Origin: an uncultured Candidatus Saccharibacteria bacterium
GTDB taxonomy: Bacteria > Patescibacteriota > Saccharimonadia > Saccharimonadales > Saccharimonadaceae
Length of the DNA stretch: 64,000 nucleotides
Reading direction: 5' to 3'
Assembly: GCA_964532185.1 (NCBI GenBank)
Contig: CAZHGO010000001.1
Span: 2,897 to 66,896, forward strand
Part shown: in pieces, positions 42,622-59,500 of the stretch
Position numbering within the stretch: the stretch's first letter is position 1
How the letters are laid out: every line of letters begins with the position of its first letter
The notes under the pieces: generated by a model
What the model saw: the letters and a program-made list of their open reading frames with translations, nothing else
Database searches by the model: none
What the model was told of the DNA's origin: nothing
Translations under genes and position numbers: made by a program

Positions 42622-43983
42622 GTGCATTTAACTACATTACTTCTCATCATTGTCGCTATTTTGACGGCGCTTTCTGGCATTGCCGTATTTTCTGGGGCTC
42701 ATAAAGGTGAACGTATACGTGCATTTCTATTTTTCTTCACTACAATTATGGCTCTAATTTGGGCAATCGGCATTGGAGTTTTTCTTTCTCTACCAGAAGA
42801 TACTAGCCCAGATATCACCAAGATCATTATAGACATGATCTATATAGGTGCACCAATTATGTGTTGGGGGTTAATGGCCTATGCTTGCCACAGTTATAAA
42901 TTGGGGCGAATCGGCATGGTTATTCTAGGAATATTATGCTTAGTATTTGTTGGCACAATTTTAGCAAAGCCCGAACTTCTCTATAGTGGCTTTACATTAA
43001 GCGAGGCTACCGGCAATATCGTGCATCTTCACCAAGATAATTTCTATATATTATATGGCGCCTACCACTTTTTAGCGGTTGGATTATATATCATAGGGTT
43101 AGGCTACACTGCCTACACCGCCAAAACCAGCCAAGTTAAAAAATCCTATCTCATGGTACTAATAGGTTTCACTATTACCGGCATTCTGGCGCTAGTTTAT
43201 GATTTTATCTTGCCATACTTTGGCAAATATGACACTATTTGGGTAGGTATTTTAGCTATGTCTATCGCTTGGATTTTTCACTACTACGCCATTCTGCGTT
43301 ACCACCTACTCAATCTTTCCAGCCCATGGCTCAAGACTTTCTCTCGCGTAATTGTATTAAGCTGCGCCGCAGTAATCTATCTAGTAATTTTCTTTATAAT
43401 TTTTGCAGCATTATTCAAAACTCCTGCTCCGTCTGTCCAAGTAATTATTCTTAATGTATTAATGATTGCCGCAGTAATGTTATTGATTCCAGCCCTAAAC
43501 GAATTGAGTGCCTTTGTTGGTTCGCTTGCCTCGGCTGACGAGATAGATGTATCCTATATTATCAAAAAAATGACCGCCATCGTAGGCTACGACGTCAATC
43601 TTACTGAGCTCTCCTCATTCCTTTGTGATCATTTGCATTTTCAATACATTGGTTTTATCCTAAATGGAGAGCTGTATGGCTCTAGTCAAGCTAAAATCTC
43701 ATCAGACACAATCAAAGAAATCGCTAGGTCAAAGAAAATCAGCGGCGGAATTTGGCTCGAACCAGACGAAAAACTTTCTGCTACCTTACACCACCTAGAT
43801 ATTAGCGCAGTAGCCGAGCTTCGTGATGGCAAAGGCAAGATTATCGGCCAAATCGTATTTGGCAAGCCAAATGGTCATATCAATTTTGAAAATCGCGATA
43901 TCGTACCTATTGAAATTATCATCCAAGTCCTCCCGGCCGTAATCAAACCTGGCAATCACCGTATCAAAAGACACCTAATTTAA
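42622..43983 (+). CDS. HisKA_7TM-like multi-pass sensor protein without a kinase domain
   Basis: About nine TMs followed by a GAF-like tail; no H-box or G-box. Start GTG 42622 behind the SD AGGAGGT. Confidence 0.6.
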   Translation: MHLTTLLLIIVAILTALSGIAVFSGAHKGERIRAFLFFFTTIMALIWAIGIGVFLSLPEDTSPDITKIIIDMIYIGAPIMCWGLMAYACHSYKLGRIGMVILGILCLVFVGTILAKPELLYSGFTLSEATGNIVHLHQDNFYILYGAYHFLAVGLYIIGLGYTAYTAKTSQVKKSYLMVLIGFTITGILALVYDFILPYFGKYDTIWVGILAMSIAWIFHYYAILRYHLLNLSSPWLKTFSRVIVLSCAAVIYLVIFFIIFAALFKTPAPSVQVIILNVLMIAAVMLLIPALNELSAFVGSLASADEIDVSYIIKKMTAIVGYDVNLTELSSFLCDHLHFQYIGFILNGELYGSSQAKISSDTIKEIARSKKISGGIWLEPDEKLSATLHHLDISAVAELRDGKGKIIGQIVFGKPNGHINFENRDIVPIEIIIQVLPAVIKPGNHRIKRHLI

Positions 43984-44012
43984 AACCCCCGGGCTAGTTA
44001 CCCGAGGGTTTA
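43982..44012. terminator. Bidirectional terminator-like hairpin
   Basis: AAACCCCCGGG-CTAGTTA-CCCGAGGGTTT (one mismatch) between convergent genes. Confidence 0.65.
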
Positions 44013-44022
44013 GTGGGGTGGA

Positions 44023-45147
44023 TTAAACAGAATGTTTCCTAATAGTAAATCTTACGCTAGTAGTACCCCAAGGTTCCACTAATGTTACTTCCGGGTCGAG
44101 CGTCTCAATATCGGCTATCCCTGCCAGCTTAGTGCTGACCACTTGTAGAGTGATTCGCCCTTGTATAATAGCGTCAGAGACAGTGTCAAAGATTACCATC
44201 GGGTTTCTTGGATCATAAGGCCAATTCTGGGTTTTGATTACTCTTCGCATCGACTCAGTCCAAAGCAAATAATCATACTTCATATAGCCGCCCGATCTTA
44301 GCAGGGTCAATCCTGCCAAAATCGCTCCCGTCATCTCGTGCCGCTCGACCTCATTTAAATACATAGATACTCCATGCATCCAGACTAACTCCTGGGTATT
44401 AAATAAATCTTGATGCTGCATGGCCTTACTGAGCGGCTCGCGACAATAGTGCACATTCTTTCTAACGTTCTCATCAGGAAAAAGCTCTTCCATAGGGCTC
44501 ACTGGGCCATCATCAAAAACTGTCAGCTCCAAATCTTTCGGCAAAGAGTAAAAACGTTCTGGAATATTACCACCGCCAAAAGTGGTAGCATATTTGATAT
44601 TTTTACTCGTAATAAAATCTGAGATAGCCTGAGATTTCTTACGCTCGTTGATATTCATACCTTCAAAATAGGACATCTGATACCACACGTCGTTTGGTGG
44701 AACTTCGCGCACCACGCCCTTCAAATCTTTGCCATAATTATGTAGATACCCCATCAGCTCCGCGATTCTCCGATCCCATACTGCAAAATAGAATTGAAGC
44801 ATAAAATCCGAAGATGGTATCTCAAAAAACTCAAAATTTTTGAGAAGACCAGGGTCCTCCAAGTGTTTTTCTGCCTCTTCCATCCGCACTTCAACTGTGT
44901 CAGCATTAAAACTGCTACGCTCCACTAGGGCCTGACGTACAGCATAAAGCATCTGCTCTTTACGTTTTTTACCTTCAGGAGTTGCAGAAACTCCAGGGAG
45001 GTCTCCATTAAAATAACGTTCCGAAAGATCAGCCTGTTCAGTTGCCCATTGATATATTGCTTCTTTAGGTAATTGTCCATAAGAAAAACTGTCATTTCCT
45101 CTTGTGACACTCCATGCATTTTTCAACGTCTGCTGCGTATTCATCAT
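44023..45147 (-). CDS. Hypothetical protein with possible class I SAM-dependent methyltransferase-like C-terminal half
   Basis: TFGGGNIP, LTVFDD, ELVWMHGVSMYL and LLRSGGYM appear in the order of Rossmann MTase motifs. Start behind the SD AAGGAGG. Confidence 0.45.
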   Translation of the reverse strand: MMNTQQTLKNAWSVTRGNDSFSYGQLPKEAIYQWATEQADLSERYFNGDLPGVSATPEGKKRKEQMLYAVRQALVERSSFNADTVEVRMEEAEKHLEDPGLLKNFEFFEIPSSDFMLQFYFAVWDRRIAELMGYLHNYGKDLKGVVREVPPNDVWYQMSYFEGMNINERKKSQAISDFITSKNIKYATTFGGGNIPERFYSLPKDLELTVFDDGPVSPMEELFPDENVRKNVHYCREPLSKAMQHQDLFNTQELVWMHGVSMYLNEVERHEMTGAILAGLTLLRSGGYMKYDYLLWTESMRRVIKTQNWPYDPRNPMVIFDTVSDAIIQGRITLQVVSTKLAGIADIETLDPEVTLVEPWGTTSVRFTIRKHSV

Positions 45148-45244
45148 GTCAATCCTCCTTATCAAAAATACTTAAGTCATCCACCCTCTAACCTACTTCA
45201 GTAAGTATATCACAAAAAAATATTTTAGAAAAGCTAGACAATAG

Positions 45245-46738
45245 TTAAGGTTTTACTTTTACGAGTCTTTCAATCCACCATTTCATAGTATCTTCATCCA
45301 GAAGCCTAGTCTGCATATCTTTGCCATAAACCGTACCTACCAGTTTGGTCTGGAGCAATTTGCCGTTATGAAAATAATGCGATAAAATCAAACTCCTAGT
45401 CGTACCTGGCCACCAAATTTGGTCAAAGAACAAATTTCCTAGCCCATAATAAATTACTCCATCACCATAAAGTTCAAAAGTTTGAGCCTGGTGAGCAGAA
45501 GTCCCCACCACCACGTCCGCACCAAGATCAATCAAATGACGGAAAAAGCCGATTTGATCACCAGCTGCAGAATTAGCCGCATCGCAAATTGGGTCTTCAT
45601 ATTCTGAAGCATAAGCCGCACATTCATAATACTGCACATCCACTATCACAAAATCACCCCGTTCCTTAGCTTCTTTGATTTGCTCAGCCGCCACATTTTC
45701 ATAATATTGATTCGCACCTGGTGTATTACCCCGTGTTGCCCCACCCGTAGATTGATTAAAGGCCAGCATAGTAATATTGGTACCCTTTTCAGACAACTCC
45801 AAAGGCGCTTTAGCCTCAGTAGCATTTTTGCCGCCACCCACCATTTTAATGCCCTTTTCGGTGTAAATGTCGATGGTATCAAGTGCAGCTTGATTACCAC
45901 AATCTTGGTTATGGTTACCGGTGAGTTCTACTACATCCAATCCGATTGCGGTTAGCGTATCTATAAATCTTGGATCAGAGCAAATATTTCGATCGTGCGC
46001 CGCTGTAGTAAAAGAAGATTCGTTAGAGGTATGCGTAATATCGAATGCAGACAAAAACGGACCGATTTGTTCTGCAAAGTAAGTTGCATCACCCCCAACA
46101 GACTTTAGCTTAGCATTCATGCCCCGAGAAAGCGCGGTCACGCCAGTTTGCGCAAAGGTAAGTACTGTGTCAGAGCTAGGAAAAGTCTTATTAAACATTT
46201 TGGAAACAAGCGGCCAAATTTCTTCCCTAAACTTCTCTGATTCAAAATTGATAATTCTATATACGGCGCCAGTTTTGAATTCGTCCAGATAATAATTATC
46301 GTTAATAGATAGTAGCTTATTAGAAAAATCCAGCTCCGAAACCGGGATTAGTTTTATATTATTTTGATTCAAAAAAGTCTCATCGGCCAGCTGTTCCACG
46401 TTCTCAACGCCAACATTAGTCTCCGAACTATAAAAATCCGTTACTGGTACATAAACTTCATAGAGATATTCACCCTCCGCAAGCTCAGGCAGCTCCAAAA
46501 CTTCTCTAACATCAATCTTTACGTCTTTATCAAGATCGACTTCCTCCGTAAAAATTTCGTGAAATTTAGAAAGCTCATCTTCTTTTAGGCCTTCACCATA
46601 ATATACTACGCCTGGCACCCTAAATATACCCGTCTTAGTGACAAATTGCACGCCAAAGAACACTCCTACAGAAATCCCTGCAAATATCGCTAAACAAATT
46701 AGCAGTTTCGCTGCACTTTTTTTTCTTCGCTCACTCAT
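45245..46738 (-). CDS. CapA/PGA_cap family metallophosphoesterase-like protein
   Basis: TGNHNQD, VVVGTSAHQAQ and YYGLGNLFFDQ; N-terminal TM. Confidence 0.8.
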   Translation of the reverse strand: MSERRKKSAAKLLICLAIFAGISVGVFFGVQFVTKTGIFRVPGVVYYGEGLKEDELSKFHEIFTEEVDLDKDVKIDVREVLELPELAEGEYLYEVYVPVTDFYSSETNVGVENVEQLADETFLNQNNIKLIPVSELDFSNKLLSINDNYYLDEFKTGAVYRIINFESEKFREEIWPLVSKMFNKTFPSSDTVLTFAQTGVTALSRGMNAKLKSVGGDATYFAEQIGPFLSAFDITHTSNESSFTTAAHDRNICSDPRFIDTLTAIGLDVVELTGNHNQDCGNQAALDTIDIYTEKGIKMVGGGKNATEAKAPLELSEKGTNITMLAFNQSTGGATRGNTPGANQYYENVAAEQIKEAKERGDFVIVDVQYYECAAYASEYEDPICDAANSAAGDQIGFFRHLIDLGADVVVGTSAHQAQTFELYGDGVIYYGLGNLFFDQIWWPGTTRSLILSHYFHNGKLLQTKLVGTVYGKDMQTRLLDEDTMKWWIERLVKVKP

Positions 46739-46770
46739 ATTTCTATTATAGCATATGTTATAATTAAAAC

Positions 46771-48741
46771 ATGGCTTGGTGGGTATTTAGAAAAGAAGAA
46801 ATCGAAAAAACTATTTTTTCTCCTGATGGCAAAATCCGTTTAGACTTTTTGCTTAAGAATAATCAAATTTTTTACTCAGTTTCAAAAGACGGTAAGCCCA
46901 TTATTAAAAAATCTAAATTAGAATTTGAAATCGTTGGCGAAGATCTATTCAAAAATAATTTAAAATTAATTCGCAGTCGTACTTCTCGTCATGAAGAAAC
47001 TATCGAGATGCTTTGGGGCGAAGATCGGTATTTAGAAAATAATTATACCGAAGGGACTTTTTATTTGGCAGAATCTAATAAATTTCGTAGAATCTTTACA
47101 CTTAGATTTAGGATTTTTAATGATGCCATAGCTTTTCGCTACGAAATCCCACCCCAACCAAAATTTAGCAGGATCGCTGTCAAAGACGAACGTACAGAGT
47201 TTAATATAGATCTAAATTCCGTAGCTTGGCAAATTCCCGCCTATCAGCCAGACCGTTATGAATATAACTACGAACGCAAAAATGCATATGAATTAGAAAA
47301 TTCCGTACATACTCCACTCACCATCAAAACTCCAAACGGTTTTTATCTTTCTATTCACGAGGCTGCACTATATAATTATGGTTCCATGACGGTCAAACTA
47401 AATCACGATAAAATTTTAAACTCTGACATCACGCCATTGTCAGACGGAACTAAAGCCCATGTAAATCTACCATTTAACACGCCTTGGCGATTAATTATGA
47501 TAGCAAACTCCGCCATTGAACTCACTGCTAACCGCACTATGTATTGCCTAAATGATCCACCACAAGAGGATTTTAGCTGGGTTAAGACGCTTAAATTTAT
47601 TGGTATTTGGTGGGCTATGTATGTAGGTGAATGGACCTGGGCCCCTGGCGAACGTCATGGTGCTACCACGGAACACGCCAAAGAATATATTGATGCCGCA
47701 GTGCGACTTGGCATTAGCGGAGTTTTGATTGAGGGCTGGAATGATGGCTGGGAAGGTAACTGGTTAGAAAATGGCATCAACAATAAATTTACGGTAGCTA
47801 CGCCAGATTTTAATCTAGAAGAAGTAGCAAATTATGCTCGAAACAAAAATATCGAGCTCGTTGGTCATCACGAAACTGTTGGTTTTGTCGATAATTACGA
47901 AAGCCAGCTTGAAGACGCCTATAATTATTATGCTGCCAACGGTGTACATTATATCAAGACCGGTTATGCCGGAAGCCAAATCGTGATAAATGGTAAAAAA
48001 GAATTTCATCATTCTCAAGCCGGAGTTAATCATTACCAAAAAACCGTGGAACTTGCTGCCAGGAAAAAGATCATGCTAGATATTCACGAACCCATCAAAG
48101 GCACTGGTATTGAACGCACTTGGCCAAATCTCCTAACCCGTGAAGGCGCCCGTGGACAAGAATATGAAGGTGGAGCCCTTAGACCATCACATGCATGCTA
48201 CCTGCCTTACACCAGATTACTAGCTGGTGGAATGGATTACACCAATGGCATTTTCGATATTGCTAATAACATCAAGCGAATTTCTACGACACTTGCTCGC
48301 CAGGTAGCGTATTTCGTGACTATCTATTCCGGTATGGCCATGGCCGCCGACCGCCCCTTTATGTACGAAGAAAAATATCCTGAACTCTTTGAATTCGTCA
48401 AAAAAGTCCCTACCAATTTTGAAAAAACCTTGCCCCTAGTTGGCGAAATCGGTGATTTTTACGTCGTAGCCAGAAAAGACCGCAATTCTGACAATTGGTA
48501 TCTTGGCGGCGTCACCGATCAAGATTCTCGTCGAGTCCATATTAATCTGGATTTCTTAGATTCCGGGGTCTACAAAGCCAAGCTATACCTAGATGGTGAA
48601 AACGCTCATTTTCGCGACAACCCCTATAGTATCAATATCTCAGAAAAACACGTTGGTAAATCCGATTCCCTAGACATTTATATGGCGCCCGGTGGTGGCT
48701 TTGCTATATCTCTTGAGCGGTTACAAGCAAACGATGTGTAG
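46771..48741 (+). CDS. Glycoside hydrolase family 97 (SusB-like alpha-glucosidase)
   Basis: SPDGKI, LIEGWNDGW, GHHET, DIHEP, EGARGQE and GGMDYT. Confidence 0.9.
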   Translation: MAWWVFRKEEIEKTIFSPDGKIRLDFLLKNNQIFYSVSKDGKPIIKKSKLEFEIVGEDLFKNNLKLIRSRTSRHEETIEMLWGEDRYLENNYTEGTFYLAESNKFRRIFTLRFRIFNDAIAFRYEIPPQPKFSRIAVKDERTEFNIDLNSVAWQIPAYQPDRYEYNYERKNAYELENSVHTPLTIKTPNGFYLSIHEAALYNYGSMTVKLNHDKILNSDITPLSDGTKAHVNLPFNTPWRLIMIANSAIELTANRTMYCLNDPPQEDFSWVKTLKFIGIWWAMYVGEWTWAPGERHGATTEHAKEYIDAAVRLGISGVLIEGWNDGWEGNWLENGINNKFTVATPDFNLEEVANYARNKNIELVGHHETVGFVDNYESQLEDAYNYYAANGVHYIKTGYAGSQIVINGKKEFHHSQAGVNHYQKTVELAARKKIMLDIHEPIKGTGIERTWPNLLTREGARGQEYEGGALRPSHACYLPYTRLLAGGMDYTNGIFDIANNIKRISTTLARQVAYFVTIYSGMAMAADRPFMYEEKYPELFEFVKKVPTNFEKTLPLVGEIGDFYVVARKDRNSDNWYLGGVTDQDSRRVHINLDFLDSGVYKAKLYLDGENAHFRDNPYSINISEKHVGKSDSLDIYMAPGGGFAISLERLQANDV

Positions 48742-49195
48742 CATCCTTATCACCTACCGGTTCACCCGCACATGTCATCAAAACCAAAGTATTGTCAGAC
48801 TCAGGCTTCAAAAGTTCGCCCATATCAATGTCTGTTTTTCTAAAAGTCTCTACGTCGGTAATCATATATCTTACATTATTATAGGTAATAGTATCATTGA
48901 CAGTTACTTGGTCTAAATTTTTAAAAATTGTAGTAGAATGGCCAATCAATAAAGTTTTACTAGAGTTTTTGCTAAAACTGCCCACAATAGAATCTGGAGT
49001 ATCAAGCCGGTGATTTTTCAATTCTAATTTAGTCACACCAGAAACTAAATCAATGCTAGGAATAATCAATCCGCCGTCAAACATATAGGCAGTGCCATTT
49101 GGCGATACAAAATAAAACGACATATAGGCCAAAAAAGACACCATATATAATATAGTAAACAATTTCCTAAAAGAAAATCTCCGTTTTAATTCCAC
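48704..49195 (-). CDS. Sortase (class F-like)
   Basis: LIGHS, LVLMTCAG and HRLLV (His/Cys/Arg triad); N-terminal TM. Confidence 0.8.
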   Translation of the reverse strand: MELKRRFSFRKLFTILYMVSFLAYMSFYFVSPNGTAYMFDGGLIIPSIDLVSGVTKLELKNHRLDTPDSIVGSFSKNSSKTLLIGHSTTIFKNLDQVTVNDTITYNNVRYMITDVETFRKTDIDMGELLKPESDNTLVLMTCAGEPVGDKDATHRLLVTAQEI

Positions 49196-49248
49196 ACTTC
49201 CTCCTTATGCTAATATTATAGCACAAGCAAAATAAATGTGAAGATATT

Positions 49249-49791
49249 TTATACGCCCGGATTAAACATTTTTAATTTTTTATCGTGATTTTTATAATTT
49301 TTGTCGTGTTCATATACCTCTGCCCAAAACGCCCTGGAATGGTCCATGTGGTTTAGATGGGCAAGTTCATGCAAAATTACATAATCGCGTAATTTTTCGG
49401 GAAGTTTCATCAAGCCAATATTAAGGGAAATAGTTTTTTTGGAAGAGCAGGAACCCCATCTGGTATTAGCATGAGTTAAACGACATTTATCATATCTATA
49501 ACCATATAATTTAGCATAATATTCCAAACGATACGGTAAATATTCGCGGGCTTTTTTCATTAAAATTTTTTTCTGATAATCACGCGTACGTTGAGTCGTC
49601 GGGTCGTTGATTGGCAGTTTTTCACGAATTCTCTCACGATTAACATCCAGATATCTCTTTACCAAAAAATCCGGCGTACGCTTAGGCACGGACATAGAAA
49701 GACGTCCAGAAGTAGAAACCGAGAATTTCACTCCTCGACTCCAGGCATTCTTGCGAACGATAATCTCGCCAAATTCTTTATCTACCAACAT
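49249..49791 (-). CDS. YgjP/M48-like zinc metallopeptidase domain protein
   Basis: TRWGSCS and YVILHELAHLNHMDHS. Confidence 0.85.
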   Translation of the reverse strand: MLVDKEFGEIIVRKNAWSRGVKFSVSTSGRLSMSVPKRTPDFLVKRYLDVNRERIREKLPINDPTTQRTRDYQKKILMKKAREYLPYRLEYYAKLYGYRYDKCRLTHANTRWGSCSSKKTISLNIGLMKLPEKLRDYVILHELAHLNHMDHSRAFWAEVYEHDKNYKNHDKKLKMFNPGV

Positions 49792-50272
49792 CAGCAAGAC
49801 CGGCTAGCACATGTTTGGTCTGGGTTTCAAAAGTATGTTTGCCAGATAGAATAATTGGGTCCTCAAGCTCGGAAGGGGCTTCTAGATTAGAAACTTCCTT
49901 GTCATAAACTTCCTTTGCCTTTTCTACAGATTTGTAGCGAGTTTTAAGACGATTGCGAATGGTAGTAACGTCGGTCTGAATCCAAATCAAAGACGGGTTA
50001 TAACCAGCGTTTCTCAAGATATTACGAATCTCTTCTCGCTCTTTCTCGGTAGAAAGACCACCTTCTATAATGATAGTTTTTCCAGTATGTGCGATTAATT
50101 TAATAATTAATAAAATATTTTTTCTAGTCAAACGATATTTGACTTTTAACTCGTCGAAATCATAGAGAGCCAAATCAAACTTATCGGCGAACTTCTCGCT
50201 AAAAGTAGATTTCCCACTGCAAGGCGCTCCGAATACGAGTAGAGCTCTTGGTTTTGACTTATTACCTTCCAT
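49778..50272 (-). CDS. P-loop (AAA_33/nucleotide kinase-like) protein
   Basis: GAPCSGKS. Start reassigned to ATG 50272 (TTGCAC-N17-TATAAT upstream). Confidence 0.75.
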   Translation of the reverse strand: MEGNKSKPRALLVFGAPCSGKSTFSEKFADKFDLALYDFDELKVKYRLTRKNILLIIKLIAHTGKTIIIEGGLSTEKEREEIRNILRNAGYNPSLIWIQTDVTTIRNRLKTRYKSVEKAKEVYDKEVSNLEAPSELEDPIILSGKHTFETQTKHVLAGLADVGR

Positions 50273-50313
50273 ATTGATTCCATTATAGCACAAAAAATCT
50301 TTCGTGTGCAAGT

Positions 50314-51180
50314 TTAATTATTTACACCATGATGCACGGTAGGACTGTCAAAAGATAGAGGCTCAAACACATAGCCATTTTCGTTTCCATATTGGATAAT
50401 TCTTTCTACGGCCTCTACGGAATAAGGCCTAATGTCATGTTGTAAAACTACGTTCGTACCAGGTTTTAAATGCGAAGCTACATTTACATAAACTGTATCA
50501 GAATCCTTAGCCTTGCCTGCATCATCCGAATCTACATTCCAATCAAAATATTGATAACCCCTTGCTTCCACTTCTCGGGTTAGGGTAGTCATGATTCTAG
50601 TGCGGCCATCATAACGTTTAGAAACTAGATTAGAACTCCCACCCGGAAATCTAATTAATTTAGCGTCCTCACCCGTAATATTTTTAACTCTATCCGCAAT
50701 TTGATTAAGATCCGCAAAATAATTATCTACACTAGCATAAACATAGGCATAGTTGTGAGACCAAGTGTGGAGTGCCACCGTATGCCCTTCGTCATATTCA
50801 CGTTTAATCGTAGCATCATCCCCACGCCCAGTCACAAAAAAAGTGGCCTTTACTTCATATTTATCTAAAACATCCAAAAGTGCATTGGTATAATCCCCTG
50901 GACCATCATCAAAAGTTAAATACACTATCCCTACCGCCTCAGCTAATCTCTTAGCATGCTCAGCCTCTCTCTCAGCTTCTTCCTCCGCCAAAATTATCTT
51001 AATATTTTCTTCACAAAAACCACATTCCAAATTTTCTTTGGGGGTTTTTGCCTCTGCCGCAATAATGTCCGACGCCATTAACATAGAAATCAAGAAAAAT
51101 AACGCCACTCCAAGTAGCGTTGAAAGAATGGCCAATGTAGCGATATGAAGTCTAATTTTATTACGACGCCTCATTTCCAT
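50314..51180 (-). CDS. Polysaccharide deacetylase (NodB/CE4)
   Basis: YLTFDDGP, ALHTWSH, RFPGGS and VLQHD. Confidence 0.9.
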   Translation of the reverse strand: MEMRRRNKIRLHIATLAILSTLLGVALFFLISMLMASDIIAAEAKTPKENLECGFCEENIKIILAEEEAEREAEHAKRLAEAVGIVYLTFDDGPGDYTNALLDVLDKYEVKATFFVTGRGDDATIKREYDEGHTVALHTWSHNYAYVYASVDNYFADLNQIADRVKNITGEDAKLIRFPGGSSNLVSKRYDGRTRIMTTLTREVEARGYQYFDWNVDSDDAGKAKDSDTVYVNVASHLKPGTNVVLQHDIRPYSVEAVERIIQYGNENGYVFEPLSFDSPTVHHGVNN

Positions 51181-51226
51181 ACTTTTATTATAACACGGTC
51201 TATGTTAAAATATAACTAGGCACTTT

Positions 51227-51302
51227 AGGGGTGTAGCTCAGTTGGTAGAGCAGCGGTCTCCAAAACCGCGTGTCGTGGGTTCAAGTCCTGCCACCCCTGC
51301 CA
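51227..51302 (+). tRNA. tRNA-Trp (anticodon CCA)
   Basis: Acceptor stem AGGGGTG/CACCCCT, anticodon arm GCGGT-CTCCAAA-ACCGC, TTCAAGT T-loop, encoded CCA. Confidence 0.97.
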
Positions 51303-51346
51303 TTTTTTTATGCCAAAATTAACATAAGTATGATATAATAATATAG

Positions 51347-52570
51347 ATGAAAATACTTATGTTAGGTTGGGAGCTGCCGCCTCACAATAGTGGGGGTCTT
51401 GGTGTTGCCTGCTTAAATATGGCTCACGCGCTTTCTAGTCAAGGCATAGATATCGATTTTGTCGTACCATACGCTGCTGAGCATCCGCATACCAATTTTA
51501 TGCATGTTTTACATGCTACAGATTTAGACCCAATTCACCGTTACGGTGGTGGAGCTTATGCCTCCCTAGACATTCATAAGAAACAGATCCCATCCATAGA
51601 TCACCCAGATATGCTTTCCATCCGTGATATCCAAAAAAGTTATCAAGATTTTGTTAGTGACTATCTCATGGAATTCAAACCAGATTTAGTCCATGCTCAC
51701 GACTGGCTCACCTACGAGGCTGGCATACTAGCAAAAAAGAATTATGGTATTCCACTAATCGCTCATGTTCATGCCACCGAGTATGATCGTGCCGGCATGC
51801 ATACGGGCAACCCTTTAATTCACGAAATCGAGCAGCAGGGGCTAATGATGGCAGACAAAATCATCGCCGTATCAGAAATCACCAAACGCATTGTTCATGA
51901 AAAATATCACATCCCCCTAAATAAAATCGACGTAATTTACAATTCACTAGACGAAGACTATTACAAAAACGGTTACGAATACGACGACAGTATTCATAAA
52001 TACACTACTAGCCTCAAAAAACAAGGTTACACCATCGTTTCTACAGTCGGGCGTTTTACCGTCCAAAAAGGCCTGGAGTTCTTTTTGAATGCCGCCGCCA
52101 AAGCCATCGCTACTAATCCCAAACTTTTGTTTATTTTTGCTGGCGATGGAGAAGAACGCAATCGCTTAATCTCTGAAGCCGCTACGCTCGGCATTTCCGA
52201 AAACGTAGTCTTTACCGGTTTTATTAGAGGCAGAAAACTTCGCGACATTTACACACTTTCCGATATCTTTGTGATGAGCTCCGTATCAGAGCCATTCGGT
52301 CTTACCGCCCTTGAGGCTGCCTATCATAAAGACGCTTTGATTCTCACTAATCAATCTGGCGTATCAGAAATCATCTGGTCTGCCATGAAATATGATTTTT
52401 GGGACGAGAACAAACTTGCCGACGAAATTCTAGCTATCGCCCAAAATCCCGCCCTTAGGAAGACTTTGCAAGAAAATGTCGGCCACGAGTATAACCAAAT
52501 GTCCTGGAGCAAAGTTGCGAAAAAATGTCAGAAGATATATAATAGCATTAACCATAAGGAGATTTGTTGA
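51347..52570 (+). CDS. GT4 family glycosyltransferase (glycogen-synthase-like)
   Basis: MLGWELPPHNSGGLG, HAHDWLT, HVHATEYDR and SEPFGLTALEA. Confidence 0.88.
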   Translation: MKILMLGWELPPHNSGGLGVACLNMAHALSSQGIDIDFVVPYAAEHPHTNFMHVLHATDLDPIHRYGGGAYASLDIHKKQIPSIDHPDMLSIRDIQKSYQDFVSDYLMEFKPDLVHAHDWLTYEAGILAKKNYGIPLIAHVHATEYDRAGMHTGNPLIHEIEQQGLMMADKIIAVSEITKRIVHEKYHIPLNKIDVIYNSLDEDYYKNGYEYDDSIHKYTTSLKKQGYTIVSTVGRFTVQKGLEFFLNAAAKAIATNPKLLFIFAGDGEERNRLISEAATLGISENVVFTGFIRGRKLRDIYTLSDIFVMSSVSEPFGLTALEAAYHKDALILTNQSGVSEIIWSAMKYDFWDENKLADEILAIAQNPALRKTLQENVGHEYNQMSWSKVAKKCQKIYNSINHKEIC

Positions 52571-53775
52571 TGCGCGCGATTTGTCTGTATTTACATATTC
52601 ATCAGCCGCTTCGCTATCGCGAATATCCAATTTTTGATGTTGGCAACAATTCCAATTATTATATCGATGACTATAATGGCCGTCAGTCCAACCAACGCAT
52701 TTTTGAAAAAGTCACTGAAAAATCTTACCGTCCGATGCTAGAATTATTAGAAAAAAAGATGGGGCAACATCCAGATTTTAAAGTCTCCTTCTCTATTACT
52801 GGCACTTGGCTAGAACAAGCCGCCAAATGGGCCCCAGATTTGATCTCTCAAATTCGCCGCATGGTCGCAAAAGGTCAAGCCGAAATCTTAGGCGAAACTT
52901 ATTATCACTCCCTGGCTTTTTTCTATAATCAAGAAGAATTTGAAGACCAAGTAGAGCTCCACGCTGACGTTATCAAAAAAGTTTTTGGCGTCACTCCACG
53001 CGTCTTTAGAAACACCGAACTTGCCTATAACGATGATCTCGCCCGCTGGGCTGAAGAAAAAGGTTATCTTGGTATTTTGGCCGAAGGCTGGGACAAAATA
53101 CTTAAAAATCGCACGCCCAACCGTGTTTATCGTCCTACCGGCTGCGAAAATCTTAAACTATTGCTCAAAAATTACCGTCTATCTGATGATATTGCTTTTA
53201 GATTTTCTAATCAAAGCTGGAAAGAATGGCCTTTAACGGTAGAAAAATACCAAAACTGGCTAGATATGGACTGTCTCAATGGCAATCTCATTAATTTATT
53301 TATGGATTTTGAAACCTTTGGCGAACATCAATGGAAAGACACCGGCATTTTTGAATTTATGGATAGTTTTATTGATTCCTGGCTTTCCGAATACGAAAAT
53401 AAATTTGTTACTGTTTCCGAAGCCTGCAATCTCATGACGCCAGACGGCGAAATCTCCATGCCCGAAACCGTTACCTGGGCGGATACCGAGCGCGATTTAT
53501 CAGCCTGGCTCTCTAATGATATGCAAAAAACCGCCATGAAGGATATATATAATATACGGTCAGATATTCTAGATACCAACGACTCTAAATTGATTGCCGA
53601 TTGGCGCCATCTTACCACTTCCGACCATCCGTATTCTATGTGCACCAAATACTGGCACGATGGCGACGTCCACGCCTACTTCTCGGCTTACGCTTCACCA
53701 TACGAATCATTTATGTATTTTATGAATGTGCTAAGAGATATAGAATATCGCTTAAGTCTCATCCAAAATCAATAA
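52570..53775 (+). CDS. Glycoside hydrolase family 57
   Basis: HIHQP, ETYYHSL, FRNTEL and MDFETFGEH; TGATG overlap with the GT4 gene. Confidence 0.9.
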   Translation: MRAICLYLHIHQPLRYREYPIFDVGNNSNYYIDDYNGRQSNQRIFEKVTEKSYRPMLELLEKKMGQHPDFKVSFSITGTWLEQAAKWAPDLISQIRRMVAKGQAEILGETYYHSLAFFYNQEEFEDQVELHADVIKKVFGVTPRVFRNTELAYNDDLARWAEEKGYLGILAEGWDKILKNRTPNRVYRPTGCENLKLLLKNYRLSDDIAFRFSNQSWKEWPLTVEKYQNWLDMDCLNGNLINLFMDFETFGEHQWKDTGIFEFMDSFIDSWLSEYENKFVTVSEACNLMTPDGEISMPETVTWADTERDLSAWLSNDMQKTAMKDIYNIRSDILDTNDSKLIADWRHLTTSDHPYSMCTKYWHDGDVHAYFSAYASPYESFMYFMNVLRDIEYRLSLIQNQ

Positions 53776-53817
53776 AATCTATTGCATATATCATAGTCTT
53801 CATGCTATAATTAAATC

Positions 53818-55993
53818 ATGCTTAAGGTTGTGCATTTTCTGGAACAGCTGAGAACCTATATATATATATATATATATAGGATTTGCACTCCTTTTTTCGA
53901 TTCTTTTGGTAATTCTTGCAACTAATTCTGCCGCTTTTGCCACTGATATAGAAACCAGTGTCACTATTAAGCCTAGCCTTAGTCTGAATATCCCCACTAA
54001 TACTATCATCATGAACCTAGATCCATCCAATCATACTTTTGATGAAAAAGATTTAACTATTAAAGTAGGTACTAATAATCTCTATGGCTATAAGCTATTT
54101 GTTAATACCATTAATGGTACTAGTGATACTAATCTAGTTAACATAGCAGACAATACTAAGACTATTCCTAATCTTTCTACTTCTACTACTGTATCAGATT
54201 TTCCAGTTAATCAATGGGGCTATAGATTCACTCCTAATGCTACCTCGTCTTCTGGTAACTATGGAGTCTTTACTCCAAGTGATTCTACTCCCATTATGGA
54301 ATCTACTGAGCCAGTGAATGAGGATACTGCTACTATGGGCTTTGCTGCTAAAATAGACTACAACAAACCAGCAGGACAATATGAACTAAACTTAAACTTT
54401 AAAGCTCTACCTATTGTTACTACTAACTATATGCAAGACATTGCAAGCGATCCTACACTTGCTAATACTATTTGTACTGAAGAACCTACTGTAGTGATAG
54501 ACAAACGTGATGAACAGGCCTATACCATTAGAAGGATTAATGGTACTTGTTGGATGGTGGAGAATTTGCAGTTTACTGGTACTACTATGGATAGTACTAC
54601 TACCAATATTGCGCCTGAGTATACGCCACAGAATCCGTATAGAGTGAACAGTGGGGATGGGTATTATGATTCAGAAAGTGACGGGGCAGACGATAATAGA
54701 TGTGGTGCAATGAGTACGGGTAGCACTGGCAGTGGTAATGGTTTTTCATATGCTTGTATACACAAAGGAGATATATCCACCTCCAGAAGCCCAATTACTG
54801 AAAGTTCTACTTCTACCAACATTTCTACTGTTTGGTATAATTACGCTGCAGCTTCTGCCGGGACAATAACTGGCATCTATAATACAAATCCACAAATTTA
54901 TGATATATGTCCAGCTGGTTGGGAATTGCCAGCAAGGATAGATTTTGATAGTGTTATTAATAACGTTTCTGAATTTAATCCTGTTGGTGGTGGAGGATAC
55001 CAACACGGATCATTAGATGCTACCAATGGTGGATATTGGTGGGATAGCAACGCCTATATCGATCATGGCGGTGAGGGATATAGAGGAATGAATCGTTATC
55101 GATTAGGTTGGGATTCTACTAATGACACTTTTGATTCTGGGCATGTATCCGGCAATAGGGGTATATGGAGCTTCTATGTCCGTTGCGTAATGAAAGAAAC
55201 TGGTATCGACAATCTTACCTACATGCAAGATTTTGCTAAGTTGAATGAAAGTGGGAATGCGGTGAAGAAGCAGCAAGTGATAAATTCTATGACCGAAAAT
55301 GAGACATATACATTAGCTGATATTAGAGATAATGCTTCATATACCTTTAGAAAACTAGGCACTGGAGATATTTGGATGGCGGAAAATCTTAAGCTCGGAT
55401 ATAACAGCAACAATCCAAATACTACCGCTCTTGACCTCAATCCTACCAATACCAATATTACCGCCAATAAAACACTCACATTATATGACGCAGTGACTTA
55501 TGGAGGAACTAGTAGCTATTGTTATGGCACCTATACTAATAGCGGCACTTCTGGAAGCGGAGACGGTTATACATACCTATGTATGCATAGTGGAACCATA
55601 GACGCAGAATACACTATGGACAATATAAGTAAAACTACAGTTTGGTATAATTATTCTGCCGCCACCGCTGGCACTATCGTAGGCGCAGGCAACACCACTA
55701 TAGCTACCGAAGATATTTGCCCAGCCGGATGGAAACTACCTAATTATGCAGAAGGAGAAAGTCTCGTCGGAACAACCTATGCCACCGCTACAACATTTAA
55801 TCCCGCCTTTGATGGGTATTACACCAACGGAAATATCAGCCACGGGTATGGTATTTGGTGGGGAACCTGGGCATATAATGGTGTACGGCGTGGTCGCCCA
55901 TATGTATATAAGTCTGACGGAGTCAATACAATAAGTATAGAAGCAGGCACTCCACAATATATGGCGTGCAGCATCCGCTGCGTCGCCAAATAA
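53818..55993 (+). CDS. Secreted WxL/pilin-like + tandem FISUMP-like protein (FISUMP-2), frameshifted at the (TA)n tract (putative phase OFF)
   Basis: The ATG 53818 frame stops at 53925. The downstream frame (ORF track 53906-55993) has the rest of the signal peptide, KIDYNKPAGQYEL and two CWMVENL/WMAENL...WYNY...ICPAGW...RCV modules. Confidence 0.8.
53855..53880. repeat. (TA)11 microsatellite (CC(TA)11GG, a perfect 26-bp palindrome) in signal-peptide codons
   Basis: Eleven TA units counted at 53857-53878. Confidence 0.92.
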
Positions 55994-56082
55994 AGACTTA
56001 ACTAGCAGGACACAAATCGGAGAATGAGCAAACAACAAAACTCACGACGAAGCTAGATGTCTCAATAATTATAATTAAGTTT

Positions 56083-56292
56083 CTACCGTTTCTTCTCTTT
56101 TACTTCGTTCCGCCCCAGATTCTTCTTTGTCTCCACAAAAAGCACATGCTTCCTCAAAACCGGATCATATTTCTTGAGCGAAAGCTTATCTGGAGTATTC
56201 ATGGTATTTTTCTTAGTATAATAAGCACGAACACCAGACTCTTCAGACACAAGCCCAACCAATTTTCTCTTAGTATTATTCTTCTTTGCCAT
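56083..56292 (-). CDS. rpmG: 50S ribosomal protein L33 with basic C-terminal extension
   Basis: YYTKKN...[19 protein letters not shown]. Likely start ATG 56292. Confidence 0.93.
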
Positions 56293-56348
56293 AATTATAT
56301 ATAATCTTACCACAAATCTCCTAAAATTTCAAGAGTAAAATTAGAGAA

Positions 56349-56374
56349 GAAAAAGGACCTCACTTAGAGGTCCT
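56349..56374 (-). terminator. Intrinsic terminator
   Basis: Minus strand AGGACCTC-TAAGT-GAGGTCCT-TTTT. Confidence 0.8.
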
Positions 56375-56384
56375 AATAAAACGT

Positions 56385-56549
56385 TTAAAAGCCTTGAAAC
56401 CGCTCCATTAGCGAGAAGCCTGCTCCGCAAGAAAGCATATGAATATTTCTTTCGATCTCCGAAGTAAAAGGTCTGCCACATCTTGGACAGCTCCATGTAA
56501 TATGTCGAATCTTAGACCATATCTTCAGGTTACGCTTAATGTTAAGCAC
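56385..56549 (-). CDS. Small (54 aa) CxxC protein, not in ORF track
   Basis: GTG start behind GAAAGGGGGTGG; MLNIKRNLKIWSKIRHITWSCPRCGRPFTSEIERNIHMLSCGAGFSLMERFQGF*; followed by a terminator. Confidence 0.6.
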   Translation of the reverse strand: MLNIKRNLKIWSKIRHITWSCPRCGRPFTSEIERNIHMLSCGAGFSLMERFQGF

Positions 56550-56598
56550 TTTAACCACCCCCTTTCAAAGACTTTTTTAAGGTACTGGCAGTATTTTA

Positions 56599-59500
56599 CT
56601 ATTTTTCCTCAAACTTTGCAAGCAAAAGCTTTATGAAGGCCTTAATTTCCTTTAGTCCAAATTCCTTATTTGCCGGCATCATCACCTCTGAATCGTCCAA
56701 AAACTTAAGATCAGTAATCTGATAATACACCGCCTGCATCAAACTCCTCAGCTCATTTTCATCATTGTCGTTAAATTCATAAACTTTATCATAAACTTCG
56801 CCATCCTGGTCGGGCTTCACAAACAAAATATGCGCCCTCTCTATCTTGTACTTAGCATAAGTTGGCGAATTGTTGAGTAGCAACTTATAAAAGCATAGTT
56901 GCAACATATTCTTGTAGAGTGTCGGGTGAGATTGCCACTTCTCTTTATGAAACTTCCCCGTCTTAAAATCATAAATCTCAATCTTTTTATTTTCTTCGTC
57001 AATCAAAATATGGTCAATTTTACCCGTTACCGGCACACCATCAATCGCCAAATGCTCAAAACCAAGATTTACCTCTGCTTTGCCCTGGCGAATCACATTA
57101 GAAAAGACTTTGAGAGGCACCAAAATCTCTTCCGGCCCCTTTTCTCTAATTCTATCCTTAATTTCCTGTGGCAAATCTTTCTTTTCTAACTCCGAAAGAT
57201 AAAACTCTATTGCCGCCTCATCTGAAATCCCCGTGTTAGCCACTTGCTCAAACGTGGCATGCGCCAAGTTCCCCAGCGCCAAAAACTCATCTTCCGGCTC
57301 TTGTTCACCTCTTAGTACCTGCTTTTTAAAAAACTCCTCTGGCCCCGCATTTACAATATCAATAAAAGACGTCAACGCAGATGCACTCATCCTCCAACCA
57401 TTAATCCGCTCTAAATATATTGCCCGCATATCTGGAGTAGACTCGATAAACGGTGTCAAATAATTTTTCAGTGACTTCGCCGACCTCTGATTTGCGGAAA
57501 GTAGAAAGGCGCTTTTATCTTCGTCTTTAATGGCTGCAATATCCGCATCTGAATATCCCAACCACACGTTTTTGGAAGGTAGATATGGTGAAATCACCTC
57601 CATCCCACCATCAGGCAGTTTTTCTACTCTCTCGTCAAAATATTCTAGCCGCTCAGGCGATTTGCCAGCAAAATCATGCAAAGAATTAGTGATATAGAGG
57701 AACTTCTTGGCCCTAGTCAACGCCACATACAGCACCCGAATTCTCTCACCATCTGTAATACCAGTATGACGAATATGTACCAAATTCTTCGGCAACGTCA
57801 AGAAATTATTGTTTCCCTTACCCCTCCCCCAACAAGAATGATCTGCCGAGACTACAAACACATATTCAAACTCCAACCCCTTAGCTTTATGCGCTGACAA
57901 CACCTGTACTGCCTCATCCGCATCTCGATAAGGACTCGTGGTATTAAGCGCCATCTCCGCTGCCTCATAGTCATCCACCATCTCTACTAAGTCTCGCACT
58001 CTCAAAGGTTTTTCGCCACAATGTTTAATTAATTTTGCCCTAAGCGAAGCCAAATTTTCATAGAACTTAAACATTTCATAAGATTCCATACCCTCTACAT
58101 GCATCTTTCCAGCAATCTCATTCAAAATCACTTCAAGCGGCGTGTTAAAGGCTTTACCCACCAAATCAGACAAAAACTCCATTACACTGCGGATATTTTC
58201 ACTTACTTCCGCATTCAAAAGGTAATCAAACACCGCTTTGTGTGCTTCTCTCGCTTCCGCTGTCAACTTCACCACCTCTATCATCGGCAAACCCCACCAA
58301 TCATAAGAAAAAACCTCTAGCATTGATACCGTTGGTTTCTTTTCTCTAGCAACCTCATCTATCAGTCTTGCAATCATCAAAATCTGATGAATTTTATCAT
58401 CCTCAAATAAATTATCTCGCCTTTCGTAGGCAATTTTGATCTCTGGATGAGACTTAAGATAAGGCAAAAGCGGCATAAAATATTTATGTTTACCAGAAAT
58501 AATCGCAATTTCGGACTGATTTACCCCAGATTTAACTAATTCTGCAATCTTGTCTGCAATATAATTATATTCTTGGTCCGAAGACAAAAACTCCAGCCGA
58601 TAAATCTGCGATTTCTTTGGTGCCGGTCTGTGCGCAGTTAACGGCTTATCATTCACAAAACGGTTCGGCGCCTGGTCGATAATCTGTTTAGAAAAATCCA
58701 AAATCTCTTGTGTAGAACGGTAATTTTCGGTTAGCGCCACTACATGCGCTCCATAATATTCCTGAAAATCCGACAAATTAGTCGAATTTGCTCCCTGGAA
58801 CTCGTAAATCGCCTGGTCGTCATCCCCCACCGCCATAATCATAGGCTTTTCATAATCCGTAATTTGCTTAACAATGGCCAGCTGCGAAGGGTTGGTATCC
58901 TGGAATTCATCCAGCATGATGAACTGATATCGCTCTTCCAAAGTTTCTTTAAAGCCCAGGTCTTCTTTCAAAATCCTCCCCGCTTCAATAATCATATCAT
59001 CAAAGTCGCATAGTCCATTATCTGACAAATACTTTTGATATTTTTCCATCACCACCGCCAGCGAGGCCAGTTTTTTGTTAGCTACTCTATCCGCCAACCG
59101 ATATCCACCTTTACCATCTTTCTCAAAATAAGTGTCCTTCCAATCAGACAAAGGTTTAATCTTCTCAGAAGCCTGCGCTTCAAGAATTGCTTGTTTCAAA
59201 TCTCGGCTCATCCCCGCAATCGAACGCTCTACCCCTGGCAAAATCGGCTCGGCTTCCTCATATTCCTTCAAAATCTCATAAATCGGCGCGTAGGCATTAT
59301 TATAAGACTCTTCAAACTTCCTCGGCACAATATTTTGCAAAAAAGACGAAATCACCGAAGATAGCACCTCAGAATCCTCTGCATTCTGCTTGGCCACTTT
59401 AGCTAAATCTTGAGCCGAAAGTCCCGCCGATTTGGCCTCCGAGATCACACTCAAAATATCTTTTACCTTATCCCCACTCAGAATATCCTTAGCGGATAAA

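Follow-up and report, generated by a model that had tools for sequence, protein, structure and literature searches.

A (TA)n tract inside the signal-peptide codons of a FISUMP surface-protein gene of a Candidatus Saccharibacteria bacterium, a probable slipped-strand switch found in the OFF state

The stretch of DNA analysed here, called the window, is 64 kb (64,000 nucleotides) of contig CAZHGO010000001.1 in the assembly GCA_964532185.1 of an uncultured Candidatus Saccharibacteria bacterium. The subject is a gene for a putative secreted FISUMP protein at 53818-55993 of the window and a repeat of eleven TA units, (TA)11, close to its 5' end. This repeat is the sole dinucleotide array within the window. 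The assembly around the window consists of 111 contigs with 838 kb, a GC content of 40.8%, and a completeness of 94%. The related samples presumably are ruminant gut metagenomes, as the sample names XIEF21 and WILK20 suggest. The features of the locus are listed below with the basis for each.

53782..53787, plus strand: -35-like hexamer TTGCAT, 18 nt upstream of the -10 element (direct reading).
53803..53811, plus strand: extended -10 element TGcTATAAT, ending 6 nt before ATG 53818 (direct reading).
53818..53856, plus strand: leader start and n-region of the signal peptide, MLKVVHFLEQLRT (matches the start of in-frame full-length homologues).
53849..53851, plus strand: TGA that shuts the long frame on its 5' side (frame reading).
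53857..53878, plus strand: (TA)11 simple-sequence repeat, the proposed switch (direct reading; 9 units or TATATC(TA)6 in sister assemblies).
53879..53941, plus strand: h- and c-region of the signal peptide, GFALLFSILLVILATNSAAFA (+1 frame, from the first base past the tract).
53923..53925, plus strand: TAA that ends the ATG-frame product in the 11-unit state (frame reading).
53942..54418, plus strand: N-terminal beta domain of the mature protein, common to all paralogues, predicted to have a pilin-like immunoglobulin (Ig) fold (paralogue alignment, AlphaFold2, Foldseek).
54419..55195, plus strand: FISUMP (lectin-like) module 1, ending FYVRCVMK (TIGR02145; boundaries approximate, from sequence landmarks).
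55196..55993, plus strand: FISUMP module 2, ending CSIRCVAK, with the stop codon at 55991-55993 (TIGR02145, sub-threshold PF09603, landmarks).

Translation from ATG 53818 gives a peptide of 35 aa, MLKVVHFLEQLRTYIYIYIYRICTPFFDSFGNSCN, with its stop at 53923-53925. The body of the gene is an open run of 704 codons in the +1 frame relative to this ATG. The first canonical start in the long frame is TTG 53906, which gives 695 aa. The tract reads (YI)n in all frames, so that no stop arises within it. The two frames are joined by 12 or by 9 units, with computed fusion products of 725 aa and 723 aa, and the 723-aa fusion is present in public data (P0001). This is the arrangement that a preliminary description of the DNA had proposed: the extended -10 element 6 nt before the ATG, a 35-aa product ending at 53925, a long +1 open reading frame (ORF) closed upstream by TGA 53849 and lacking a convincing start of its own, and fusion of the frames by 12 or 9 units. 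It was confirmed in each of these points. A genetic code in which TGA is a sense codon was also considered and was ruled out, since table 11 leaves the neighbouring genes as long open frames and in-frame alleles exist.

The tract begins 39 nt downstream of the ATG and 46 nt downstream of the -10 element. The hydrophobic core, GFALLFSILLVILATNSAAFA followed by TD, opens at the first codon past the tract. A start at TTG 53906 would give MVILATNSAAFA, which is without a charged n-region and has a hydrophobic stretch of 5 residues.

A consensus promoter scan found no promoter at 53782-53811, where the -35 fits just 3 of 6 positions. The promoter call was made because the extended -10 element is present and recurs across 19 promoter-leader cassettes of the same gene family. 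TATAAT or TACAAT ends 6-8 nt 5' of the ATG in nearly all of them, and most also have a TTGnnn on the 5' side of the -10, at a comparable spacing. The spacing of the -10 to the ATG implies that the mRNA may be leaderless or near-leaderless.

Full-length homologues that are in frame open with the same leader (P0001, P0003, P0008, P0011, P0015, P0027, and P0039). For example, P0001 (ENA) and P0003 (NCBI GCA_017433485.1) are the same gene, with 723 aa, starting MLKVVHFLEQLRTYIYIYIGFALLFS. Five proteins are without the long tract (P0011, P0015, P0027, P0039, and P0044). In distant homologues from metagenome-assembled genomes (MAGs) of other Saccharibacteria, the leader (MLKVV..) continues in frame into the hydrophobic core with no long repeat between them, as in MLKVVHNSSMPRICICVVAIF, MLKVVHRANWLSYICVGVLL, MLKVVRNLICCVCLLFAF, and MLKVVRKSRKASAILVV. 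The DNA of L096 reads TCC TATATATGTGTA GG at the homologous position, which is a short degenerate tract. Across 18 cassettes the variability of the leader by codon position is 0.81/0.59/1.09 bits, highest at third positions, and synonymous codons are used (CTT/TTA for Leu; GTT/GTC/GTA for Val). In protein searches, two proteins matched residues 1-60 of the C1 fusion, and none matched the leader residues 1-40 of the C46 fusion. Because homologues begin there in frame and the leader varies like coding sequence, ATG 53818 is the real start and the tract is intragenic. The preliminary description had allowed for homologues that start at TTG 53906; those that were found start at the leader ATG.

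These observations bear on the possibility that the tract is a transcriptional element, that is, part of the promoter or of the 5' untranslated region, with translation from TTG 53906. A (TA)n run does resemble a -10 box. This explanation is nevertheless hardly credible, as the tract lies downstream of a conserved ATG rather than between the -35 and the -10, the hydrophobic core starts right after it, the product from the TTG has no n-region, and homologues begin at the leader ATG.

The length of the tract differs between near-identical strains, as two independent assemblies of the locus show. Positions 50818-58308 of the window align with L016 (ENA ERZ27256797) at 99.77% identity over 7,491 nt, with 13 mismatches and 1 gap. 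The single gap is the tract, which is (TA)9 and in frame in L016, compared to 11 units in the window. Positions 43818-56302 align with L018 (GCA_017433485.1) at 99.63% identity over 12,485 nt, with 42 mismatches and 1 gap, and this gap is again the tract, TATATC(TA)6, in frame. The A-to-C interruption in L018 changes ATA to ATC and retains Ile, which fits a translated tract; it is expected to make slippage less likely. The preliminary description had reckoned with an invariant tract as one possible outcome, and the three assemblies instead hold 11, 9, or an interrupted 9 units. The tract is the hypervariable point of the locus.

Other cassettes vary as well. A 91%-identical relative from another sample, L017, has two cassettes, both out of frame: one of 9 units whose flank differs by 2 nt, and one of 14 units. 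At the C14 locus, four assemblies share a length of 10 units and a fifth has 9, according to a look-up by exact protein that was able to detect OFF alleles only. The C22 cassette has 11 units and is out of frame here; in isolate S3M_St_33 it has 9 and is in frame. P0008, from a different species (NCBI locus tag IKG07_01645), combines the leader with an in-frame (TA)11. In L017:1-3760 (ENA ERZ27256958 k141_413002), the (TA)9 and (TA)14 cassettes lie 3.6 kb apart, and the first FISUMP gene is separated from the second cassette by an AAA_14/DUF4143 ATPase gene.

The distribution of such tracts was explored through pattern scans. A scan of JGI metagenomes for the leader with (TA)>=6 gave 66 matches, all of them due to chance or to eukaryote-like microsatellites, and no cassette. 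A scan of the GTDB species representatives gave 4 matches, of which 1 was real (L022); the pattern was too strict, and L093, with CAG as its sixth codon, was missed. Runs of (TA)>=9 were present in 2 of 24 same-genus representatives, both intergenic and without the cassette. Therefore, long TA tracts are lineage-specific and not genus-wide. A (TA)13 run in a different setting was observed in L094:3001-3260 (ENA ERZ27280436 k141_691977). Beginning after a GGAGG site, the ORF there runs from ..VVPNTG.. through a membrane helix, (IY)n, and RKHKQ to another membrane helix and a FISUMP protein. Its N-terminus, which resembles a sortase signal, is thereby attached by way of the repeat.

There are nine (TA)9-12 tracts in the genome, compared to 6e-5 (TA)9 tracts expected for 838 kb under a first-order Markov model. 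TA runs have a bimodal length distribution: those of 3, 4, and 5 units occur 276, 57, and 7 times, lengths of 6-8 units are absent, and the nine long tracts have 9-12. All nine are in one type of cassette, composed of promoter, ATG, leader, tract, hydrophobic segment, and conserved mature N-terminal domain. The leader has the form M[LQN][KE]V[VIM]HNLL..K.KS. Eight of the nine cassettes are out of frame; the one in frame is on contig C39 and encodes 786 aa. The frame would be repaired by +1/-2 units in five of the OFF cassettes and by -1/+2 in three. The bodies of all out-of-frame cassettes are open for 392-740 codons. The family is large: its N-terminal domain has more than 40 tblastn matches in the genome.

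It is very unlikely that the 11-unit tract is an assembly or sequencing error over a true tract of 9 or 12 units and an intact gene. Dinucleotide repeats are prone to stutter, and the two other assemblies have an 18-nt in-frame tract at this locus. One systematic error, however, cannot explain eight cassettes off frame whose corrections are of opposite sign. In addition, the 10 units at C14 were found in four independent assemblies from different samples, and a repeat of 22 nt is well inside the read length.

The size of the family and the number of copies out of frame could also be expected if the gene were a decaying pseudogene, inactivated one way among redundant paralogues. Such decay is highly improbable here. 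The 704 codons after the shift have no stop and the repeat is the only lesion, and sister strains at 99.6-99.8% DNA identity are in frame. About 20 genes retain a long perfect tract at one and the same codon position, and none has an intermediate length, which indicates selection for mutability.

A second type of repeat is found in the same family. Of 14 G/C runs of 9-11 in the genome, 13 sit in the c-region of the signal peptide, and the lengths of G/C runs are bimodal with a peak at 10. The context is ..LLM-Gn-tgcaaccgc, which reads LLMGGG ATA, where the signal peptide ends (..LLM-Gn-ATAT..). A G9 tract preserves the reading frame, and G10 and G11 break it; L095 carries an in-frame allele with G9. 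No A or T homopolymer longer than 8 is found in the whole assembly, despite 59% A+T. The preliminary description had proposed a single switch locus. The locus itself was confirmed, and the scale proved too small, as nine (TA)n and about 13 poly-G cassettes belong to one family. The poly-G tracts, which are outside the window, are located as follows.

Poly-G tracts: C2:45544, C3:19790, C5:13230, C15:4058, C18:4969, C19:6294, C20:13779.
Poly-G tracts, continued: C23:1805, C28:12, C41:3686, C63:1, C68:2923, C85:1540.

The encoded protein was identified as FISUMP in the preliminary description, and this was borne out by the NCBIfam model TIGR02145, which matches two stretches with 71.6 bits against a cut-off of 41.65. 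The Pfam model PF09603 (Fib_succ_major) matches residues 506-636 of the 713-aa translation with 24.3 bits, below its gathering score of 33.9, and FISUMP membership therefore rests on the NCBIfam model. By inspection, the signal peptide of the ON allele consists of MLKVVHFLEQLR, TYIYIYIGFALLFSILLVILA, and TNSAAFA, followed by TD. It is long, with 40 aa, and AFA followed by TD agrees with the AxA sites of paralogues in the alignment. An AlphaFold2 model of the in-frame allele was built on a 31-sequence alignment. It has one helix at residues 2-34 and a confident beta domain at residues ~50-200, with a predicted local distance difference test (pLDDT) score of 76-91. In Foldseek, the nearest structures to the beta domain were the chaperone-usher pilins CfaB, CS17, PapA, and FimA, as well as TasA. 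No sequence-family match to such pilins was found. The product is thus predicted to be secreted by way of a long Sec-type signal peptide and to combine a pilin-like beta domain with two lectin-like FISUMP modules. An adhesin or host-recognition role would be a reasonable reading of the domain content together with the moderate fold match.

Taken as a whole, the locus is probably a slipped-strand contingency switch on a pilin-like/FISUMP surface protein, caught in its OFF state. A phase-variable slippage switch had been put forward in the preliminary description, and it is supported by the length polymorphism between strains and by the starts of the homologues. The hypermutable (TA)n lies inside the codons of the signal peptide, between the charged n-region and the hydrophobic core, and replication slippage would add or remove TA units. 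The start codon would meet the gene body at multiples of three only (9 and 12 units). At 11 units, ribosomes from ATG 53818 would make the 35-aa peptide, the 704-codon body would have no usable start, and the protein would be lost. ON alleles would differ by YI pairs alone, within the part that is cleaved. Tracts of (TA)9-12 or G9-11 in the shared promoter-leader cassette could gate about twenty paralogues in this manner, and each lineage would then display a random, heritable, and reversible subset of surface proteins.

Some full-length protein could also come from any allele if the tract acted as a rheostat at the level of RNA or the ribosome, through transcriptional slippage or +1/-1 frameshifting on (UA)n, and the length of the DNA tract would then be of little consequence. 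Long repeats can make polymerase slip, as in the poly(A) tracts of endosymbionts, and most cassettes have nominally OFF lengths with intact bodies. Intact bodies are equally expected under a reversible DNA switch, and near-identical strains differ in length exactly at the tract. Where relatives lack a long tract, their leader is strictly in frame, and therefore the frame matters. No frameshift-stimulating structure stands out in the fold of the 5' RNA (z = -1.5), where there is only a UA hairpin. A rheostat of this kind is very unlikely.

Several points weigh against the proposed switch or against parts of it. Tract lengths were compared between assemblies, and the 11-unit length at the window locus rests on one assembly. 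The ON fraction of 1/9 is below the one third expected from random lengths. The shortfall does not reach significance (P about 0.14), but a gradual loss of some copies is conceivable. In four cassettes (C14, C19, C26, and C39), the membrane helix is preceded by a long basic linker that contains internal ATGs, and gene callers start from these linker ATGs (P0005). These four genes may be controlled differently and not depend fully on the tract; the window gene is unaffected. A background deficient in mismatch repair, typical of phasomes rich in simple-sequence repeats, would speak for the switch but is suggested by motif searches only. No MutS (GPNM.GKS) or MutL (ELVENSLDA-like) motif was found in the six-frame translation of the 94%-complete assembly, and the control motifs of RecA, UvrD, and Ung were found in the same search. 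As for the protein, the AlphaFold2 model is poor outside residues 1-250, with a mean pLDDT of 55.9, and the Foldseek match to pilins is moderate, with E from 4e-4 to 1e-2, a target template modelling (TM) score of 0.47-0.54, and a root-mean-square deviation of 5-9 A.

The linker that follows (TA)10 in C14 (C14:4056-4175, locus L012) contains two hairpins upstream of the internal ATG that is used by the gene caller. These are aaactttcttttt/aaaaagaaagttt and tctgaaacg...cgtttcaga, the latter followed by the T-run ttttgatttt. The hairpins may act as a translation-coupled terminator, which would strengthen the OFF state.

The family also affects how such genomes are assembled and annotated. Six contigs end inside the shared promoter/signal-peptide cassette (C2, C20, C28, C63, C68, and C85). 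The paralogue family is a main cause of contig breaks, and several of its members are cut at contig ends. The public call for the window gene (53906-55993) is the 695-aa ORF starting at the TTG (P0004), which is without most of the signal peptide, and other paralogues were called from internal Met codons (P0005 and P0007). With truncated or split gene calls and contig breaks in the shared cassette, the main surface family of these organisms is systematically mis-annotated in MAGs.

Two reverse transcriptases of about 370-390 aa are encoded in the genome, with the IGNL[ST]SQ motif typical of diversity-generating retroelements (DGRs). The copy on C26, the sole one scanned against Pfam, matches RVT_1 with 43 bits, and both are below the cut-offs for the group II intron, retron, and Drt families. 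One of the two shares a contig with a TA-gated FISUMP gene. The FISUMP lectin tips may also be DGR targets.

G000:C26 from about 2840 (reversed coordinates), minus strand: DGR-type reverse transcriptase.
G000:C77 from about 773, minus strand: DGR-type reverse transcriptase.

Saccharibacteria live attached to other bacteria. Little has been learned so far of how they choose, retain, or change a host, or of how they escape phages and host defences. About twenty promoter-plus-repeat cassettes for lectin-like proteins point to variation of the attachment surface at the level of the population. It is possible, though doubtful, that the repeat-gated paralogues and the two DGR-type reverse transcriptases form a dedicated stochastic system for bet-hedging on host range. 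In such a system, about 20 pilin-lectin paralogues in 0.84 Mb would be switched by (TA)n and by poly-G, each with its own position in a common leaderless signal-peptide cassette, and the reverse transcriptases may rewrite the lectin tips. If this were true, the epibiont would keep re-drawing the bacterial hosts, glycans, or phages that its surface engages, and Saccharibacteria biology would have an organising principle that is undescribed in the literature searched.

The mechanism itself is textbook; the value of the present case is in the new phylum, the scale and density of the switches, and the link to an epibiotic lifestyle. The preliminary description knew of no such switch in this group, and a search of the full-text literature likewise gave no report of repeat-mediated on/off variation in genes of Saccharibacteria, TM7, Patescibacteria, or the Candidate Phyla Radiation. 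The published observations that come nearest concern a Gracilibacterium with a 9-mer repeat that stays in frame (PMC6851277) and, in general terms only, a TM7x phage paper that discusses the subject (PMC11032452).

In its predicted architecture, a pilin-like module joined to lectin-like modules, the protein resembles the chaperone-usher pilins and tip adhesins (CfaB, PapA, and FimA/FimH) and the Firmicutes WxL/DUF916 surface systems. Unlike in FimH, the pilin-like domain comes first here, so that the order is reversed; the fold match is moderate, and donor-strand exchange would be hypothetical in this protein.

With regard to the repeat, (TA)n switches are present in the Vmm/Vmc proteins of Mycoplasma mycoides/capricolum and in hif of Haemophilus influenzae, where they lie in the promoter spacer and tune transcription. 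The similarities are a (TA)n of about 9-12 units in a conserved 5' cassette, a family of variable surface proteins, and a small genome that, in the present case, may be poor in repair. Unlike those tracts, the one described here is 39 nt inside the coding sequence and would act by frameshift. A promoter-spacer switch was considered for this locus and was ruled out by the position of the tract, 46 nt downstream of the -10.

Repeats in signal-peptide codons are found in pilC1/pilC2 (poly-G) and opa (CTCTT) of Neisseria, and Campylobacter jejuni has a poly-G phasome. As in those bacteria, the repeat here is in a signal peptide that is predicted to be cleaved, and ON variants would give the same mature protein. 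There are many loci per genome, which would lead to combinatorial surface states, and the poly-G class is a direct counterpart. The window gene differs in using TA, not G or CTCTT; the phylum and the protein family differ as well. Phase variation driven by simple-sequence repeats is documented in two reports (PMC8437040 and PMC5084427).

The closest known system is the CT-repeat outer-membrane gene family of Helicobacter pylori. Its oipA gene has a CT repeat in the 5' signal-peptide region that is switched ON and OFF by slipped-strand mispairing, as described in one report (PMC10564699). The two systems differ in several respects, and their proteins are unrelated. The repeat here is TA, encoding YI, and there CT, encoding LS; the proteins here are pilin-like with FISUMP modules, and there they are Hop porin-like. 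This organism is a Gram-positive-type ultrasmall epibiont, and its mRNA is apparently leaderless. In addition, about 20 loci here carry two types of repeat at two positions of one shared signal peptide. Genes of H. pylori with CT repeats of like kind are sabA, sabB, hopZ, and babB. H. pylori apparently lacks MutS/MutL, and the motif search suggests that the genome analysed here may lack them too. In both, a dinucleotide repeat lies in the 5' coding and signal region of a paralogous family of surface proteins, where a change in its length would shift the frame between ON and OFF.

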